Of a stretch of DNA of 64,000 nucleotides, positions 3,600-36,525 are shown piece by piece. Each line of letters opens with the position of its first letter. Within the stretch, counting starts at the first letter, position 1. The notes beneath the pieces are model-generated. The model worked only from the letters and a program-made list of their open reading frames with translations, made no database searches and was not told the DNA's origin. The position numbers were made by a program, and so were the translations under genes. The stretch is from NCBI GenBank assembly GCA_944393315.1, contig CALXZT010000001.1, positions 10,252 to 74,251 of the forward strand, read 5' to 3'. The stretch comes from an uncultured Clostridia bacterium (lineage in GTDB: Bacteria > Bacillota > Clostridia > TANB77 > CAG-508).

Positions 3600-4157
3600 T
3601 TAATTGAATTTATTCATTGCTATATCAATTCCATTTTTTAATATTTCGATTACAGCTTCTGTAGCTTTTGATACTCCTTCTTCTAATTCTTCTTTAGTTT
3701 TGTTAGATAGCCTACCTATAACATATTTTATTTTGTCTTCATTTTCCATAGGTTTTCCTATTCCAATTCTAATTCTTGGAAATTCTATTGTTCCTAAGTT
3801 CTCAACAATTGATTTCATTCCATTATGTGTTCCGCTATGTCCTTTTTTTCGTATTTTTATTTCACCTATATTTATGTCCATATCATCATAGATTATTAAT
3901 ATATTACTCGCCGGAATTTTATAAAAATTTGCAAATTCTCGTACACATACTCCACTTAAGTTCATATATGTTTGAGGCTTTAGTAAAATTACCTCTTTTC
4001 CTTCTATATTACACTTTTCGTACAAGCCATTAAATTTGTTTTTTGCTAATTTTATATTATATTTTGCACATATTTTATTTATTGCATCAAAACCCATATT
4101 GTGTCTTGTCATACTATATTCTTCTTCTGGATTTCCTAGACCTACTATTAAATACAT
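3600..4157 (-). CDS. pth: peptidyl-tRNA hydrolase
   Basis: LIVGLGNPEEEYSMTRHNMGF signature, 185 aa. No SD of its own. A mini-ORF with a strong SD sits 12 nt upstream (see findings). Confidence 0.9.
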   Translation of the reverse strand: MYLIVGLGNPEEEYSMTRHNMGFDAINKICAKYNIKLAKNKFNGLYEKCNIEGKEVILLKPQTYMNLSGVCVREFANFYKIPASNILIIYDDMDINIGEIKIRKKGHSGTHNGMKSIVENLGTIEFPRIRIGIGKPMENEDKIKYVIGRLSNKTKEELEEGVSKATEAVIEILKNGIDIAMNKFN

Positions 4158-4169
4158 TTTTTTATTTAT

Positions 4170-4198
4170 ATGTTAGTTTTCTAACATGTCTCCTTTTT
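4170..4198 (-). promoter_or_regulatory. conserved leader element: SD AAGGAGA + mini-ORF ATG-TTA-GAA-AAC-TAA (MLEN) forming the palindrome ATGTTAGAAAACTAACAT, immediately upstream of pth
   Basis: Sequence read directly. The identical element recurs at 6582..6606. Confidence 0.4.
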
Positions 4199-4239
4199 AA
4201 TATTTTTCTTAACTAGTATACCAAATTTTTTAGCTAATA

Positions 4240-5295
4240 TCAACATTTTATTTTGCTTTTAAAAACCCATTCTCTTTGTATTACGAAATTTATTATAAAA
4301 ATAATTGTATCAACTATTATTTTTATTAGTGTTGAATTTATATGTAATAATTTAAATAGCTCAGATACTGCAAATGCAGAAATAAACATTTGAACTATGC
4401 ATAGTATGAAATATTTAATTATTGAACCTTTATTTTTATTTTTAAATACAACTTTTGAGTTTATTAAAAAATTATAAACAGCAGAAATAATTCTTGCAAT
4501 TATTGTTGCTATTACTATGTTTGTTATTCCATTTAAATTAATTTCAGGTAAAATATTCACAAGTAATGTGAATAACAGTATATCTAATATAAAGGAGCTT
4601 AATGACGATATAATGTATTTTATAAATAGTTTATATATCATTATTGAATCCCCTATAGCATCGAAATGGCTTAAAGAGTTATTTCTAATGTATACTGTTG
4701 ATATTGGTACTTCTGCTATTTGTATATCTTTTTGTTTACACTCTATTAACATGTTAGTTTCAAATTCATATCTTTCTCCTTTAGTTTGCATAAAAGTTTC
4801 CATTGTTTTTCGTCCAAATGCTCTTAGACCAGATTGTGTATCAGTTATTTTTATCCCTACAAATGTATTAAAAATTCCCCTTGTTATTTTGTTTCCATAT
4901 CTACTTCTAAATGGTACTTGTTTCTCATCAAAATTTCTAAACCCTATTACTAATTTGTTTGGATCTTCTCTTAATTTATTTGCACATTTTATAATGTCTT
5001 CTACATAATGTTGTCCATCACAATCTGCAGTAACAGCTCCTATTATCTTAGGGTAATTACTTAGTATATAGTTAAAAGCTGTTTTTATTCCTCTACCTTT
5101 TCCTAAATTTATGTAATGCTTTAAAACTACTATTCCTTCATTTTTCAAATTTTCAAAAAATTGAGTGTATTCTATTCCACTTCCATCATCAACAACCACA
5201 ATATTTTTGAAATTATCTTTCACTTTTTTTATGAATTCCATCATTATTTCTCTATCTGGTTTGTATGATGGAATTATTATCACCATATCTTCCAT
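4240..5295 (-). CDS. family 2 glycosyltransferase fused to a GtrA-like membrane domain (polyprenyl-phosphate sugar transferase, CsbB/GtrB-like)
   Basis: N-terminal IIIPSYKPDREI...VVVDDGSG GT-A fold with a DxD-like motif. C-terminal multi-TM GtrA-like tail. Confidence 0.7.
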   Translation of the reverse strand: MEDMVIIIPSYKPDREIMMEFIKKVKDNFKNIVVVDDGSGIEYTQFFENLKNEGIVVLKHYINLGKGRGIKTAFNYILSNYPKIIGAVTADCDGQHYVEDIIKCANKLREDPNKLVIGFRNFDEKQVPFRSRYGNKITRGIFNTFVGIKITDTQSGLRAFGRKTMETFMQTKGERYEFETNMLIECKQKDIQIAEVPISTVYIRNNSLSHFDAIGDSIMIYKLFIKYIISSLSSFILDILLFTLLVNILPEINLNGITNIVIATIIARIISAVYNFLINSKVVFKNKNKGSIIKYFILCIVQMFISAFAVSELFKLLHINSTLIKIIVDTIIFIINFVIQREWVFKSKIKC

Positions 5296-5366
5296 AACAT
5301 TCCTCTTTTATTTTATTATATTCTACGAAATTTTACACATAGTAAGAAGGTTTTAGTAAAATATAA

Positions 5367-6569
5367 TTATTCGTTTTTTTGACTATTATCTGTAACTGAT
5401 TGCATGTTTACTAATTTCCATTTTGCATTTTCTTTTTTATCATCTGTTTCATAAGCATAAACAAAATACATTCTTTCATTCATTTTGTCTTCAATTATTT
5501 TGCCACCAGACTTCAATTTTAAATTTTTTTGTAAGTATACTTCACATGAGAAAGCATTTTCGTTGTAAATTTCGAAATTACTCATTTTTTCGTTTGTAAA
5601 TGTTGGATTTAATAGTGTATGACTGCTTACAAATGTGATGTCAACTCCAGTTGCCCAATTGTAAGCAAATTTTTCTATTTCTGAATCAGCTATTAAGTGT
5701 TTTCTTATATTATAATAGCCATGTAAACGTCCCTCTAAGTCGTCTGTTAAATATAAGCTCCAGTCTTTTGCTACAGTTAATATATCAGGTTCTCCTTTGA
5801 TATATGATTTTGCTTCTTCTTCAGTTTGTGCAAATATAAAATCTAATTTTTTTGATATTGTGTTTCCCTTTTTTGTATATTCTATCTTATTTTCGTTTGA
5901 ATCTAATATTTTTACATCTGGTTCTTTAAGCAAATTATTAACCTCATATTTTACTATATATGGTATTTCTACATATCTTGATATTTGTGCAAGTCCCTCA
6001 TTTTGAATCTTTTCTGTTATTTGTTCTTCAGTTAGTTCTTTATCATTTATATATACTTTGCAATTGTTTGGAACTAATATGTTGCAAGTATAAAGCCCTG
6101 TTTCCATTTTAGGTTCTATTTTTTCAGTTTTCCATGAGTTAAAAGTTAATAGTCCTAATCTATTTTCTTTTTTGGTTCCGTTTAAACTAATTTCTAAAAT
6201 TTTGTTATCATTTGCATAAATATCATATATTGGCTTTTCATTTTCTGTACTGCTTTTATTTAATTTATATGTTATATTATTTGTGTTAAGAAGTTCGTTA
6301 AATCCTTCATTTACAGATACATTTGTTTTTTCAAACTCGCTTATGTCTATTTTTGATATATCTATATATTTTTCTATTTTTTTATTTTTGCTTGCTTTTT
6401 TTAAGTTATTAATTATACCTTCAATATAGTTTTCTGTTTGGTTTTTTTCATATTTAACTAAACTATCTGCCACGTACCCTAAAAATGCTAACATTAATAT
6501 AAATAAAATTATTACATATATATTTAAGAATTTTTTAAATTTCGATTTTTTTTGTTTTTTTTGCTCCAT
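5367..6569 (-). CDS. hypothetical membrane-anchored extracytoplasmic protein (400 aa)
   Basis: N-terminal K-rich segment followed by a single TM (YVIILFILMLAFLGYV). No recognisable catalytic motif. Preceded by the same mini-ORF element as pth. Confidence 0.5.
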   Translation of the reverse strand: MEQKKQKKSKFKKFLNIYVIILFILMLAFLGYVADSLVKYEKNQTENYIEGIINNLKKASKNKKIEKYIDISKIDISEFEKTNVSVNEGFNELLNTNNITYKLNKSSTENEKPIYDIYANDNKILEISLNGTKKENRLGLLTFNSWKTEKIEPKMETGLYTCNILVPNNCKVYINDKELTEEQITEKIQNEGLAQISRYVEIPYIVKYEVNNLLKEPDVKILDSNENKIEYTKKGNTISKKLDFIFAQTEEEAKSYIKGEPDILTVAKDWSLYLTDDLEGRLHGYYNIRKHLIADSEIEKFAYNWATGVDITFVSSHTLLNPTFTNEKMSNFEIYNENAFSCEVYLQKNLKLKSGGKIIEDKMNERMYFVYAYETDDKKENAKWKLVNMQSVTDNSQKNE

Positions 6570-6581
6570 TTATAATTCTCT

Positions 6582-6606
6582 ATGTTAGTTTTCTAACATA
6601 TCTCCC
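6582..6606 (-). promoter_or_regulatory. second copy of SD (GGGAGA) + MLEN mini-ORF/palindrome ATGTTAGAAAACTAACAT, 14 nt upstream of the 400-aa gene start
   Basis: Identical 18-nt palindrome and mini-ORF as at 4170..4187. Confidence 0.4.
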
Positions 6607-8678: not shown

Positions 8679-9089
8679 CTAGTATTCCTCAATAATAATA
8701 GATACTTTTTCCTCTGTTCCATATTTTTTTTCTACATTTAATTTTGTGATTTGAGTGTCATCTTTAAATGCAAATTTGTTCATTGCATCTAATATTATTT
8801 TTACTATGTTGTCTATGTCTGGTTTTTTTGTTGGACTAATGCTGTTATCTAGCATTTTGCCTATTTCTTGTTTTTTAGTGTTTTTAGGTATGTTAAATGA
8901 TGCAGCTATACTAACTGCTATTCTTCCTTCTAATGGTTCAAATTTTGGATATTTTAGCAAAAAGTATTGTTCTACTAGATATTCATAGTCTTTTGTTTTT
9001 GTAGGTGTATATACTATTCCAGTATATGAGTTGACTCGTGGTCTCCCTTTTCCTTTTATAGTTCCTGGTACTTCAAATTCATATTTCAT
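8679..9089 (-). CDS. rusA: RusA-family Holliday junction resolvase (phage-type)
   Basis: GKGRPRVNSYTG...YTPTKTKDYE and overall size (136 aa) match the phage RusA pattern. Isolated phage-type gene next to a compositionally distinct segment. Confidence 0.65.
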   Translation of the reverse strand: MKYEFEVPGTIKGKGRPRVNSYTGIVYTPTKTKDYEYLVEQYFLLKYPKFEPLEGRIAVSIAASFNIPKNTKKQEIGKMLDNSISPTKKPDIDNIVKIILDAMNKFAFKDDTQITKLNVEKKYGTEEKVSIIIEEY

Positions 9090-10248: not shown

Positions 10249-11027
10249 TTAACCTAATGCTACATCTAAAATCATCATTATTACAAATCCAATTGCAACA
10301 CCAATTGTTCCAATATTTGAGTGTTCACCTGCTTGTGATTCTGGTATTAGTTCCTCAACTACTACATATATCATTGCTCCTGCTGCAAATGCTAATAAAT
10401 ATGGAAGAACTGGAATTATTGCATTTGCAAGTAACATTGTAATTATTGCTGCTATTGGTTCTACTACTCCTGATAGTGTTCCATATAAAAAGGCTCTCGG
10501 TCTTGATACTCCTTCTCCTTTTAATGGCATTGAAACTATTGCTCCTTCAGGAAAGTTTTGTATTGCTATTCCACATGCTAATGCAATTGTTCCTGTTAAA
10601 GTTATTCCCGTATTTTCCATCAGTGCTCCCGCAAGTGTTACCCCCACTGCCATTCCTTCTGGAATATTGTGAAGTGTTACTGCAAATAACATCATAGTTG
10701 TTTTCTTAAATTTTGATTTTATTCCTTCTGGTTTATCTGTTTTCAAGTGTAAATGTGGCACTACACTATCTAACACCAGTAGAAATACTATTCCTAATAA
10801 AAAACCTATTGCAGCTGGTATCCATGCTATTTTCCCTTGTTCTTCTGCCATATTAATTGCCGGAATAATTAGTGACCATACAGAAGCTGCTATCATTACT
10901 CCTGAAGCAAATCCTAACAATATTTTTTCAGTTTTCATATTTATTTTATTTTTCATTAAAAATACCATACTTGAACCTAGTGTGGTTCCTAAAAATGGTA
11001 TTAATAGGGTTGCTAATAATTGCATTT
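10249..11027 (-). CDS. ZIP family metal (zinc) transporter
   Basis: HNIPEGMAVG and HSNIGT ZIP signatures, multiple TMs. Start moved to the internal ATG (MQLLATLL) preceded by SD AAAGGAG. Confidence 0.8.
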
Positions 11028-22359: not shown

Positions 22360-23055
22360 CTATAAATTTTCTATTTTATAACCTATTCCCCAAATTACCT
22401 TTAGATATTTTGGCTCTTTGGGGTTTATCTCAATCTTTTGCCTAATATGCCTAATATGTACAGCTATTATATTTTCAGTCCCATAGCTTTCCTCTTCCCA
22501 TACATTTTCATATATTTGTTCTATTGAATATACTACACCTTTATTTTTTATTAGAAATTTTAATATGTTATATTCTATAGGTGTTAGTTTAACATCTTTT
22601 CCATCTACTGTTACTTTTTTTAATGTATCATTTACTACTAATTCACCTGTTTTAAAAATTTCTTTATTGTTCTTGTCTTCCAACACCCCAAGTTTTGTGT
22701 ATCTACGTATTCCTGAGTTTACTCTTGCTATTAGTTCTAATGGATTAAATGGTTTTGTTACATAATCATCTGCGCCTAAATTTAAACCTCTTATTTTGTC
22801 TTCATCTTCTGATTTTGCTGATAACATTATTACTGGAATTGCTTCTGTTTTTCGTATTTCATTTAAAGTCTCTATTCCATCTTTAATTGGCATCATGATG
22901 TCTAAAATTATTAGATGAATGGAATTATTTCTTAGAATTTTTAAAACTTCTTCACCATTATAGGCTTTTAAAACATTATAGCCCTCTTTACTTAGATAAA
23001 TTTCAATTGCAGATACAATTTCTTTATCATCATCACATACTAAAATATTGTACAT
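22360..23055 (-). CDS. OmpR-family DNA-binding response regulator
   Basis: Receiver domain (ILVCDDD, phospho-Asp in LIILDIMMP) + winged helix (KVIWGIGYK). Confidence 0.9.
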   Translation of the reverse strand: MYNILVCDDDKEIVSAIEIYLSKEGYNVLKAYNGEEVLKILRNNSIHLIILDIMMPIKDGIETLNEIRKTEAIPVIMLSAKSEDEDKIRGLNLGADDYVTKPFNPLELIARVNSGIRRYTKLGVLEDKNNKEIFKTGELVVNDTLKKVTVDGKDVKLTPIEYNILKFLIKNKGVVYSIEQIYENVWEEESYGTENIIAVHIRHIRQKIEINPKEPKYLKVIWGIGYKIENL

Positions 23056-23166
23056 ATTATTACTTATGTTAGCTTTTGTAGCGTAACATTTCCCCCTTTT
23101 TATATTATATAAGACAACCTAAAAATTAAATTTATAATTTTTAGATTGTCTAAATTATATCAGTAA

Positions 23167-24222: not shown

Positions 24223-26070
24223 TTAGATTTCGACCTTAGGCTGATATCTCTCAAGCCACATATTAACTTGGCATAAATATGCCATAAGCTGAGGTCCTGT
24301 CATTAATTGGCCAAACCATGGTCTAGTAAAGGCCTTACCATCTGTATCTAAGATTTCTAAAATATATTTTCTGTTTAAAATATTATTAATCGGTGCTGAT
24401 TTATTTTCCATAATATCTGAAAGAATCTTTTTTACTCTAGCTAAATAAGTTGGGTTATGAGTTTTTGGATATGGGCTTTTCTTTCTCTTAGCAACCTCCT
24501 CAGGTAATATTTTTTTGGCAATATAGCGAAGTAATCCCTTTTCTCTACCATTTAATGCTTTCATCTCCCATGGAATATTCCAAACATATTCAGCCAAACG
24601 ATAATCACAAAATGGAACTCTAAGTTCAAAACCATTATACATTGCTGTCCTGTCTGACCTATCAAGAAGAGTTTGCATAAACCAGTTTAATGTTAAATGC
24701 GAAATTTTTCTTTTTTCTGCTGTTTCTTTTGAATCTGTTTCTAGTATTTCTACTTCACTTAGACTTTCTTTATATCTAAAGTCTATATATTCTCTTAAAT
24801 CTATTTTTGAAGAAATTTCTGGATGTAGTAATTTGTTTCGTTCATCAATAGCAATTGACCAAGGAAATGTATTACTTTTTAGTGCATCCTCTCTAAAAAA
24901 CCATGGATAACCTCCAAAAATTTCATCTGCACATTCTCCAGTTAAAGAAACAGTTGCTTGTTTTTTTACATTTTTGCAAAATAGTAGCAAAGAAGAGTCA
25001 ATATCTGCCATCCCTGGCATATCACGAGCAATCATTGCATCTTCTAGATAATCTGCAAGTTCTGGTGTATCTATGACTATTGTCTTATGTTTACAATAAA
25101 TATTTTTAGTCATTAAATTAATATAGTAATTATCAGAATTTGGTTGGAAATCACTTTTTACGAAATTTTTGTCATTATCTACATAATCTATTGAAAATGT
25201 ATTTAACGGTGCTAAACCTTGCTCTTTACAATAATCTGATGCATATTTTGCGATAATGCTTGAATCTAAACCACCAGACAAAAATATACAAAGAGGTACA
25301 TCTGAAACCAATTGTCTTTTAATTGCATTTTCTAATAAATATTCTACTTTTTCACAAGTTTGCTCTAAATTATCAGTATGCTCCTTACTCTTTAATTGCC
25401 AGTATTTTTCTATATGAAGTCCTGTCTTATTAAAAGTTGCAAAATGTGCTGGTTTTAATTCAAAAATATCTTTAAATACAGTAGTTCCAGCAGTATGTGC
25501 AGGTCCTATTCCTAAAAGTTCTGCAATTCCTTGTTTATCTACTATTTTTTCTATCTCTGGATATTCAAAAATTGCTTTAATTTCTGATGCAAAAATCAAG
25601 GTATTATCTCTAGTAGTATAATACAATGGTTTTACTCCAAAATGGTCACGTGCTATAAATAATTCCTCTGTTTTTGTATTCCATATTGCAAAAGCAAAGA
25701 TTCCATTTAAGTAATTTACTACATCTTTTCCAAAATGAATATAACTTTTTAGAAGTACTTCAGTATCAGAATGTCCATTAAATTCAAATCCATTATCTAT
25801 TAGTATCTTTCTTATTTCTTCTGTGTTATATATCTGTCCATTATAAACAATGATATAAGTGCTATCTTGAAATCTTTCGACCATTGGCTGTTTACCGCCT
25901 TCTGGATCAATTACAATTAGTCTTTTATGACCTAGAGCCACATGTTTAGATATGTAATATCCTTCTTCATCTGGTCCTCTTTTTGATAAAGTTTCATTCA
26001 TATTATTTAAAACATTTCTATAATTTGATATATCTTTTTTTAAGTTTGCAAATCCTACAATTCCACACAT
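24223..26070 (-). CDS. asnB: asparagine synthase (glutamine-hydrolysing)
   Basis: MCGIVGF N-terminal nucleophile. SGGLDSS PP-loop. 615 aa. Confidence 0.9.
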   Translation of the reverse strand: MCGIVGFANLKKDISNYRNVLNNMNETLSKRGPDEEGYYISKHVALGHKRLIVIDPEGGKQPMVERFQDSTYIIVYNGQIYNTEEIRKILIDNGFEFNGHSDTEVLLKSYIHFGKDVVNYLNGIFAFAIWNTKTEELFIARDHFGVKPLYYTTRDNTLIFASEIKAIFEYPEIEKIVDKQGIAELLGIGPAHTAGTTVFKDIFELKPAHFATFNKTGLHIEKYWQLKSKEHTDNLEQTCEKVEYLLENAIKRQLVSDVPLCIFLSGGLDSSIIAKYASDYCKEQGLAPLNTFSIDYVDNDKNFVKSDFQPNSDNYYINLMTKNIYCKHKTIVIDTPELADYLEDAMIARDMPGMADIDSSLLLFCKNVKKQATVSLTGECADEIFGGYPWFFREDALKSNTFPWSIAIDERNKLLHPEISSKIDLREYIDFRYKESLSEVEILETDSKETAEKRKISHLTLNWFMQTLLDRSDRTAMYNGFELRVPFCDYRLAEYVWNIPWEMKALNGREKGLLRYIAKKILPEEVAKRKKSPYPKTHNPTYLARVKKILSDIMENKSAPINNILNRKYILEILDTDGKAFTRPWFGQLMTGPQLMAYLCQVNMWLERYQPKVEI

Positions 26071-26169
26071 TTATTTATAATCTACTTTATAAGTAGATTT
26101 CCCCCTTTCTTTAGGATGTATTCATTTATAGTATATTCATTTTTTTATATTATGTTACCTGTATTAAAG

Positions 26170-28456: not shown

Positions 28457-28575
28457 AATTTCCTCATTTTTGGAAAAGTGGCCAGTTTTCTTTTCCAATT
28501 TTATTCTTATTATTAGTTTAAATTGCTTTTATAAAAATGAAAAATGGAAAAGAGAACCATCCACTTTTCCATTTT

Positions 28576-29736
28576 TTATCCCCAGAAGCTTTTTTTCTTA
28601 ATTGGTGGTTGCTCATTCATCGTTCTTGCTAATTTTTCTAGTAAATCTCTTTGCTCTGAAGTTAGTTTTTTTGGTGTTTGTACAACAACTGTGAAAATAA
28701 AATCTCCTACTACACTTGAATTTAATGATTTAAATCCTTTATTTTTTATAGTGAATTTTTCTCCTGTTTGTGTTGCATCTGGTATTTTGTATTTTTCTTT
28801 ACTTCCATCAACCATTGGTATCTCAAGTTCTGCTCCAAGGGCTGCTTGTGTAATTGTAATTGGAACTTCACAAAATACATTTACTCCTTTTCTAGTAAAT
28901 ATTGCATTTTTCTTTACCTTAACAGTAATGTATAAATCTCCATTTGGACCTCCCTTTTCTCCTGGATCTCCTTCTCCTCTTAATACAACTGTTTGGTTGT
29001 CATCAATTCCTGCTGGGATTTTTACTTTTATTTTAGGTTGTTTTCTTACAGTTCCTTTTCCTCTACAATTTTCACAAGGCTCTTTTATTACTTCACCTGT
29101 ACCATGACAATTTGAGCATGTTCTTGTTGTTTGCATTTGTCCTAAAATTGTATTTTGTATTTGCCTTACCTGTCCTGTTCCATTACATACACTACATTTT
29201 GTTACAACTGTTCCAGGTCTTGCTCCACTTCCATGGCAGACTATGCAGGTCTCATTTCTTGTTATTGAGATATTTTTTTCAACTCCTAAGAAAGCTTCCT
29301 GAAATGTAATTTCTAAATTAACATTTAAGTCAGCACCTTTTCTAGGACCATTGTTCTTTCTAGTACTTGAAGTTCTTGCTCCACCGCCAAAAAAACTAGA
29401 AAAAATATCTCCTAAATCTCCAAAATCAGAAAATCCATCAAATCCTGAGGTAGTATATGAATAATATCCTCCTTGTCCAAAAGGTCCTTGCCCACCAAAT
29501 GGTCCTTGTGGTCCATCAAATCCAAATTGATCATACATTTTTCTTTTTTGAGGGTCTGATAAATTTTCATATGCTTCATTAACCTCTTTAAACTTAGCTT
29601 CTGCCTCTGCTTTATTGTCTGGATTAGCATCTGGGTGATATTTTTTTGCAAGTCTTCTATATGCTTTTTTTATTTCTTCATCACTGGCAGTCTTTGATAA
29701 TCCTAATACTTCATAATAGTCTCTTTTATTTGCCAT
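28576..29736 (-). CDS. dnaJ: molecular chaperone DnaJ
   Basis: J-domain with HPD, G/F-rich region, four CxxCxGxG zinc-finger repeats. Confidence 0.95.
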
Positions 29737-29833
29737 TGTTTTTAGCTATGTCAGTTTAAAAACTAACATTTCCTCCTTATCTATTCAATTTATTATCTTT
29801 AAATTAATAAAGTAAACTGTGTAAAACATTACT

Positions 29834-36304: not shown

Positions 36305-36458
36305 TTTTATATAATAGAAAAACCTCTGCTTCGTGAGCAAAGGTTTAAATAAACAAGTTTCTTTATTATTCAAAGCTCTGCTTTGTCGGTTTTAGCACCT
36401 TGTGTTTTACAGGTTGCTGTGGAGTCATAAAGCCGATTCTCTCGTCCACTCTTAATAA
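36305..36458 (-). ncRNA. SAM-I (S-box) riboswitch with terminator, leader of metK
   Basis: Minus-strand sequence TTATTAAGAGTGGACGAGAGAATCGGC...ATGACTCCACAGCAACC...AAGGTGCTAAAACC...AGAGC matches the conserved S-box cores. Followed by hairpin CCTTTGCTCACGAAGCAGAGG + TTTTT. Confidence 0.7.
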
Positions 36459-36525
36459 AATTTATTAACTTTTGATATTATACTATATAATTTAATTTTT
36501 TTCAAGTGCTTTATAATTCTTTGGT

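Follow-up and report, generated by a model that had tools for sequence, protein, structure and literature searches.

How is a gene translated when nothing resembling a ribosome-binding site stands at the usual distance from its start codon? This question is raised by two genes in the 64,000-nucleotide (nt) stretch of DNA analyzed here (the window: positions 10,252 to 74,251 of contig CALXZT010000001.1, assembly GCA_944393315.1), which comes from an uncultured Clostridia bacterium (TANB77; CAG-508), has about 27% GC and carries nearly all of its genes on the minus strand. The two genes are pth and the gene for a protein of 400 amino acids (aa), and each is preceded by an exact copy of the 18-nt palindrome ATGTTAGAAAACTAACAT; the two minus-strand copies lie at 4187..4170 and 6599..6582. 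A first-pass annotation had read the palindrome as a conserved four-codon leader mini-gene, 'MLEN', translationally coupled to the gene behind it. We find that the conserved unit is an architecture, in which a hairpin stands between a strong Shine-Dalgarno (SD) sequence and the start codon, and that the four-codon mini-gene is a by-product of the palindrome. The element is probably the folded spacer of a split (noncontiguous) ribosome-binding site, using the mechanism of genes 38 and 25 of phage T4. The observations that carry this reading are the architecture itself, its enrichment at gene starts, the conserved pairing and the replacement of the hairpin by a canonical SD in orthologs that lack it; the step from architecture to function is that the hairpin would be needed for, or would tune, initiation at the downstream AUG.

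The repeated palindrome upstream of pth and the 400-aa gene

The chance expectation for exact copies of the 18-mer in the window is zero, and none of 100 dinucleotide-preserving shuffles contained a match. Checked base by base, the first unit reads GGAGA-C-[ATGTTAG AAAA CTAACAT]-12 nt-ATG, with the GGAGA at 4193..4189 and the pth start at 4157, and the second reads GGGAGA-T-[the same 18-mer]-12 nt-ATG, with the GGGAGA at 6606..6601 and the start of the 400-aa open reading frame (ORF) at 6569. Set in register over 50 nt, the two units are 78% identical. Segmental duplication was ruled out as the source of the repeat: the two 351-aa genes preceding the copies are unrelated, and the repeat is therefore not a by-product of gene duplication. 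The repeat is real, non-random and biologically meaningful. On these points the first-pass annotation was right, both in treating the repeat as non-random and in seeing a strong SD before each copy; it had placed the copies 12-14 nt upstream of the starts, a position that holds with the distance corrected to 12 nt in both.

The start of pth at 4157 was confirmed by a Pfam match that begins at residue 3 and by orthologs whose sequence opens with MYLIVGLGNP after a canonical SD. Ordinary genes of the window mostly carry GGAG or GAGG 5-9 nt before the start. No such sequence lies within 20 nt of the pth start or of that of the 400-aa gene, as had been claimed, and these two genes, having no SD of their own, must depend on the one upstream. 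The 18-mer consists of a 7-base-pair (bp) stem and a 4-nt loop, with a free energy of folding (dG) of about -4.7 to -6.8 kcal/mol, and in the window copies it reads ATG TTA GAA AAC TAA, the Met-Leu-Glu-Asn-stop of the earlier reading.

Architecture, enrichment and predicted fold

The conserved layout comprises a strong SD (GGAGA, GGAGG or GGGGG), 1-3 nt, a hairpin of 6-11 bp, 8-12 unpaired A-rich nt and the AUG. Starting from the SD-less genes of the window and scanning for an SD, a hairpin, 7-13 nt and a start codon, we found this layout at three further genes, with starts at 23055, 26070 and 29736, beyond the two copies noted at first. It thus occurs at 5 of the 40 curated gene starts of the window, those of pth, the 400-aa protein, a response regulator, an asparagine synthase (asnB) and dnaJ; among the other ATGs of the window, taken as a control, it was met at 11 of 2298 with a stem of at least 6 bp and at 2 of 2298 with a stem of at least 7 bp. 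None of the five starts (4157, 6569, 23055, 26070, 29736) has GGAG or GAGG within 20 nt. Measured from the end of GGAG to the AUG, the linear distance is 29-37 nt (13 instances), against the 5-9 nt of ordinary window genes; with the hairpin looped out, the effective distance is 9-15 nt.

The minimum-energy fold was the hairpin, with the SD and the AUG unpaired, in all 26 instances (dG -5.7 to -14.9 kcal/mol). An RNA thermometer (fourU or ROSE) or an SD-sequestering hairpin was rejected, the SD and the true AUG being unpaired in every predicted fold. Rfam covariance models run over the whole window at gathering thresholds returned a SAM riboswitch only, and a search around the elements at E up to 10 returned nothing relevant. 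One further palindrome, ATGTTAC-N11-GTAACAT at 57202-57226, is part of the sequence coding for a 247-aa membrane protein and was judged a chance match. The components of the five modules are as follows.

4215..4243, minus strand: promoter-like site for pth, TTGATA-17 nt-TATACT with a TG ahead of the -10; the orthologs of L052, L056, L057 and L058 conserve both hexamers
4189..4193, minus strand: SD GGAGA for pth, 32 nt (from the end of GGAG) upstream of the start; the sole SD-like sequence upstream of pth
4170..4187, minus strand: spacer hairpin copy 1, AUGUUAG-AAAA-CUAACAU, 7 bp with a tetraloop; stems kept and loop variable in L052, L056 and L057
4155..4169, minus strand: 12-nt A-rich unpaired gap and pth start codon (ATG 4157..4155)
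6601..6606, minus strand: SD GGGAGA for the 400-aa gene
6581..6600, minus strand: spacer hairpin copy 2, the 18-mer plus one U-A pair, giving 8 bp, with loop AAAA
6567..6580, minus strand: 11-nt gap (counted after the 8-bp stem) and start codon of the 400-aa ORF (ATG 6569..6567)
23053..23096, minus strand: module 3, OmpR-type response regulator, GGGGG-AA-AUGUUA(c)GC-UACAAAA-GCUAACAU, 10 nt, AUG; start 23055
26068..26105, minus strand: module 4, asparagine synthase (asnB), GGGGG-A-AAUCUACUU-AUA-AAGUAGAUU, 8 nt, AUG; start 26070
29734..29776, minus strand: module 5, dnaJ, GGAGG-AA-AUGUUAGUU-UUUA-AACUGACAU, 11 nt, AUG; start 29736

The promoter-like site is conserved at pth, which places the hairpin within a 5' untranslated region of roughly 50 nt. 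The response-regulator hairpin has the AUGUUA stem with a bulge, and the dnaJ stem (AUGUUAGUU/AACUGACAU) has 9 bp, one of them a U.G wobble. The asnB stem (AAUCUACUU/AAGUAGAUU) differs in sequence from the AUGUUAG type and contains no AUG; the start of this gene is fixed by its MCGIV N-terminus.

Conservation at pth

Orthologs were fetched by protein identity and not by structure, and the comparisons among them are the only unbiased evidence on pairing. Among the pth orthologs, the closest ones (85-86% identity) have the hairpin and those at 84, 80, 71 and 70% identity lack it; the first-pass annotation had staked its reading on the presence of the element at the orthologous loci of relatives, which holds for the nearest of them and not for the others. 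The hairpin-less orthologs (L058, L060, L062, L064) carry a canonical SD 5-7 nt from the equivalent ATG, and L058 lacks the hairpin and keeps the promoter. Among the four hairpin-bearing pth orthologs the stems are fixed and the loop is AAAA, ACAAA, AACAAA or AAAACA (4, 5, 6 and 6 nt). Loops of 5 or 6 nt shift the UAA out of frame, and in L052 and L056 the stem AUG then runs into pth.

Several Pth homologs are 195 aa long and begin MLEQTNINKK-MYLIVG. These public gene calls (P0003, P0007, P0009 and P0028, from L052-L057) extend the protein by 10 residues, to the stem AUG, and look like annotation artefacts due to an AUG adjacent to the SD. Genuine read-through from the stem AUG as an in-frame extension was rejected: the in-frame relation of 30 nt holds at pth, and the distance is 26-29 nt at other genes. 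One JGI call of Pth translates an in-frame TGA as Trp. An alternative genetic code was considered and discarded, TGA ending 6 of 45 long minus-strand ORFs of the window and the code being standard; the Trp call is therefore an annotation artefact as well. In another assembly of the window's species (L023:27-44), the pth hairpin has ATGTCAG, with a C.A mismatch that may be a polymorphism or a sequencing error. Upstream of pth in the 71%-identity relative (L062:9900-10000 and L063) stand GC-rich palindromes, GGGACCGGGTCCC ... GAACCGGTCCCTTTTT, which are terminator- or attenuator-like and directly abut the SD.

Other orthologs: pairing kept or SD moved close

At the 400-aa gene, the ortholog in L052 has identical stems and the loop AUUU, and in a 392-aa ortholog in L058 the equivalent place is taken by another 8-bp stem, ACUAUAAC/GUUAUAGU; among the orthologs of this gene, 4-5 of the 8 pairs are altered on both sides. 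The dnaJ hairpin is kept in L066 and L067, where one pair changes from U-A to C-G in L066 and, at another, the U.G of the window is matched by a stem that is all Watson-Crick in L067; it is absent in L068 and L188, where the SD lies close to the start. In the asnB ortholog of L067 the hairpin persists, with compensated changes at 2 pairs. A trpS-like gene in L188 has AUAUUAG/CUAAUAU, a compensated change from G-C to A-U by which the stem AUG is lost, and shares the gap motif AAGCUA with the dnaJ leader. An Rsm22-like gene in L058 shows the architecture with the stem UCAGAACU/AGUUCUGA; neither this stem nor that of the 392-aa ortholog has an AUG within it. Orthologs of a permease gene are identical in stems and gap and differ in the loop, and two infA orthologs have an identical element within diverged flanks.

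Elsewhere the hairpin gives way to a canonical SD: at infA in L062, in a probable ortholog of the response regulator in L067, and at metK in the window and in L067, with an AUGUUAG-type hairpin at metK in L066. Altogether, among about 25 ortholog sites, about 15 have the hairpin and about 10 a canonical SD (5-10 nt from the AUG in the hairpin-less orthologs), and none has a long unstructured spacer. Every site thus has either the hairpin or a canonical SD. It follows that the upstream SD belongs to the gene itself and that the hairpin would be what allows so long a spacing to work. In an alignment of all 26 modules, 98.4% of the cells pair, double changes occur at all 7 pairs, none of 500 shuffles reaches these values, and registers slid by 1-3 columns pair at no more than 46%. 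Stem pairing is evidently under selection, and the hairpin that the first-pass annotation mentioned in passing agrees with both the conserved pairing and the predicted folds.

Occurrence in other genomes, metagenomes and viruses

A strand-neutral scan for the exact 18-mer in 185,579 species, with one genome per species, gave 17 single matches, about the number expected by chance. Eight or nine of the 17 have GGAG 2-3 nt upstream and a downstream ATG that opens a long ORF; the distance from palindrome to ATG is 8-11 nt in the eight clear cases and 22 nt in the doubtful one, L011. Apart from L011, all matches in SD context come from low-GC Clostridia-like assemblies, one of them labelled Bacillales. 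In the sense of the mRNA, the loop is AAAA in some of these and UUUU in others, and the genes behind them are mutually unrelated (xseA, a SecF-like gene, infA twice, a GT2 transferase, a methyltransferase, a BcrAD-type activator and an ABC permease). The 17 matches speak against a widespread conserved motif, yet half of them stand in SD context in low-GC Clostridia.

When metagenomes were scanned for GGAG followed by the stem with any 4-nt loop, 27 matches were obtained, most of them chance and 5 genuine, which added orthologs with the loops GCUU, GACG and GUAU; genomes of this lineage are evidently scarce in the scanned collection. Viral contigs served as a negative control: ATGTTAG-N4-CTAACAT occurred at 121 sites, 3 of which had an SD-like 5' flank and none the architecture. 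The carriers of the element belong to an uncultured, spore-forming, low-GC lineage of Clostridia recovered from metagenomes.

Neighbouring genes and other features

The genes around the two exact copies encode a MiaB-like radical-SAM enzyme, RNase G, Pth, a GT2/GtrA glycosyltransferase, the 400-aa protein, a NAGPA-domain protein, a TrxB-like reductase and RusA; the 400-aa protein had no Pfam match. In RusA (8679-9089, minus strand) and a 186-aa ORF (45007, minus strand), GGAG stands 14 nt ahead of the first in-frame start and the spacer is unstructured and rich in purines; these spacings may reflect mis-assigned starts or tolerated long spacing. Directly after the dnaJ stop, at 28471-28571 on the minus strand, lies an imperfect hairpin of about 100 nt (dG -37.6 kcal/mol, z -5.5), which matched only microRNA-precursor models, below threshold and on both strands, and has no obvious U-tract. 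A SAM-I (S-adenosylmethionine) riboswitch (75 bits) occupies 36360-36461 on the minus strand, upstream of a SAM synthetase gene (start 36249) that has a canonical SD; in the relative L066 this gene has gained an AUGUUAG-type spacer hairpin instead. The start region of hrcA in two relatives (L066:5260-5330 and L067:5600-5670) reads TTAGCACaaactaTTGacaAGTGCT, which resembles the CIRCE heat-shock operator and overlaps the TTG start of hrcA.

Mechanism and alternative explanations

Read linearly, an SD 29-37 nt from the AUG would be too far away to work. In a split ribosome-binding site the hairpin would fold and loop out of the mRNA track, perhaps stacked on the helix of SD and anti-SD, and would thereby bring the SD to within the effective 9-15 nt; a 30S subunit bound at the SD could then place the real AUG in the P site. 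The AUG and UAA of the stem would be a consequence of this particular palindrome and not a translated leader.

Several observations weigh against this reading, or against its being the whole account. Even the effective distance of 9-15 nt exceeds the 5-9 nt of ordinary window genes, and the element may lower expression rather than restore it: with an effective spacing above the local optimum, it may keep translation at a level that is lower or depends on conditions, for instance on temperature or on a helicase. Among the four pth orthologs, longer loops go with shorter gaps (loops of 4, 5, 6 and 6 nt, gaps of 12, 11, 10 and 10 nt, respectively), so that what stays constant is the total length (30 nt from stem AUG to pth AUG) and not the gap between hairpin and AUG. 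The non-ATGTTAG stems at non-orthologous genes came from a hairpin scan, and the pairing of these instances in the 26-module alignment is partly so by construction. Finally, if the role were only structural, there would be no reason for 14 stem positions to be identical among unrelated genes of different species. AUGUUAG/CUAACAU is used at most sites, and it also arises afresh at individual genes of individual lineages, as at metK in L066. The recurring stem, the constant total length at pth and the common gap motif AAGCUA therefore keep a trans-acting reader and the copying of a module, which are not mutually exclusive, under consideration. That the AUGUUAG/CUAACAU hairpin is a lineage-specific, actively propagated module, passed from gene to gene and/or recognised by a trans-acting factor of its own or by some specialised feature of the ribosome, is doubtful but credible.

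For the mini-ORF coupling proposed at first, ribosomes would start at the stem AUG by means of the adjacent SD, translate Met-Leu-Glu-Asn, stop at the UAA and re-initiate 12 nt downstream. A palindrome with a 4-nt loop does always yield an AUG, three codons and a UAA, most variants with longer loops close within 4-8 codons, and the downstream genes have no SD of their own. The SD, however, is only 1-3 nt from the stem AUG in all instances, against 5-9 nt for real starts, which is also the optimal range of spacing between SD and start codon (PMC7264876), and the stem AUG is base-paired. Nor is the frame conserved: the in-frame stop is lost in the pth leaders of L052 and L056, the AUG has become AUA at the trpS-like site of L188 and is missing from the stems of asnB and the two L058 hairpins, and the peptide varies freely (MLEN, MLVF, MLGF, MLGR, MLGI). 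With stop, AUG and peptide not conserved, a conserved MLEN mini-ORF is not supported, and we consider such coupling very unlikely. A DNA operator, that is, a palindrome bound by a dimeric transcription factor, would account for an 18-bp inverted repeat with a 4-nt centre, for the presence of both loop orientations (AAAA and TTTT) relative to the gene and for the position of the pth copy about 25 bp downstream of the promoter-like site, and the palindrome resembles the clostridial Rex box, TTGTTAA-N4-TTAACAA. We nevertheless hold it to be extremely improbable, for a Rex-like site as for any other: the half-sites are 3-12 nt apart, variants with G.U wobbles or bulges pair only as RNA, the element always follows the SD by 1-3 nt on the coding strand, including inside operons, and the genes are functionally unrelated. 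A hairpin-dependent pause of RNA polymerase 8-12 nt downstream was also considered and set aside, as it leaves the missing canonical SD without explanation.

The identity of the stems bears on two further explanations. A lineage-specific protein or RNA might bind the AUGUUAG/CUAACAU stem beside the SD and block or promote ribosome binding, which would make the element the operator of a post-transcriptional regulon. Such a factor is compatible with the geometry of a split site, its position would be ideal for competing with the 30S subunit, and it would fit the recurrence of the 14 stem bases, with free loops, at pth, dnaJ, infA, metK, xseA, secF, response-regulator, glycosyltransferase and permease genes across species. 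We rate it as rather unlikely, given a gene set without functional coherence, the turnover of sites between species at 84-91% protein identity, the tolerance of compensated stem changes and the use of other stem sequences in the same architecture; no candidate factor was identified. Alternatively, a hairpin of about 20-45 nt, or the whole module of SD, hairpin and gap, could spread between ribosome-binding sites through a hairpin-specific transposase or ectopic gene conversion and be merely tolerated there, since it folds out of the spacer. Repeated palindromes of the REP/RAYT or MITE kind are scattered through intergenic DNA without regard to gene starts and go with a Y1 transposase. An identical stem does turn up at a new gene within one lineage, as at metK in L066 alone, and close relatives may lack it, as L058 does at pth; ATGT repeats flank the pth insertion when the leader is set against that of L058, the AAGCUA gap motif recurs at two unlike genes, dnaJ and the trpS-like gene, and the contig that bears the AUAUUAG-type hairpin also carries a gene for a 256-aa Y1 transposase (PF01797; L188:17978-18748). 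This explanation is distinctly unlikely: every genuine copy found lies in sense orientation in a ribosome-binding site and none in another intergenic context, tblastn found no homolog of the Y1 transposase in the window, and so short an element allows no confident test for termini or target duplications.

Comparison with known systems and significance

Some known leaders share single features with the element. In minigenes of the lambda bar type and other start-stop elements, a very short frame from AUG to stop stands beside an SD in the 5' leader, and their expression is toxic when Pth is limiting. The short frame next to the SD and the link to pth are suggestive in this light; unlike in minigenes, the AUG here lies 1-3 nt from the SD and is base-paired, relatives can do without the stop and even without the AUG, and the element is not specific to pth. 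The STAB-SD or 5' stabiliser elements of Bacillus mRNAs are SD-like sequences far from the start that bind the 30S subunit, with a second, canonical SD at the start itself; the distant SD-like sequence is common to both, whereas the genes described here have no second canonical SD.

The closest parallel is found in phage T4, where a hairpin cuts the spacing from 22 to 5 nt at gene 38 and from 27 to 11 nt at gene 25 (PMC3014915), and where mutations that destabilize the stem lower initiation (PMC3014915; the concept is reviewed in PMC7297116). As in T4, a hairpin between SD and start shortens an otherwise non-functional spacing, here from 29-37 to 9-15 nt, and is conserved in close relatives and absent in more distant ones. 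The T4 cases differ in being single phage genes, each with its own stem; here about one in eight window genes of a cellular genome has the arrangement, one stem is reused across unrelated genes and species with quick gain and loss, and function is read from sequence. The split initiation regions of Escherichia coli thrS and rpmE also tolerate, or benefit from, a stable hairpin that arranges the elements of ribosome binding (PMC7297116), but their hairpin lies upstream of the SD and serves as an operator for the gene's own product, in single-gene autoregulation with long irregular stems. We found no report in the literature of this motif, or of a genome-wide split-site arrangement in Clostridia.

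So far, hairpin-interrupted ribosome-binding sites have been described for a handful of genes in phages and E. coli, and they tend to be regarded as curiosities. In this lineage the arrangement is routine, being present at about one window gene in eight, among them the housekeeping genes pth, dnaJ and asnB, and at infA and metK in relatives; what is new is its high frequency in a cellular genome, its rapid gain and loss between close species and the reuse of a stereotyped stem at unrelated genes. If the proposed mechanism holds, these leaders would provide a natural variant series on how the 30S subunit accommodates a helix between SD and P site in strongly SD-dependent organisms, and would expose a pitfall of annotation, in which gene callers extend such genes to the stem AUG. 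It would also make it worth asking what agent spreads the common stem or reads it. Should the hairpin indeed be a copied or read module, it would amount to a genome-wide layer of translational control, reaching roughly 5-10% of genes and without a described counterpart in cellular organisms.

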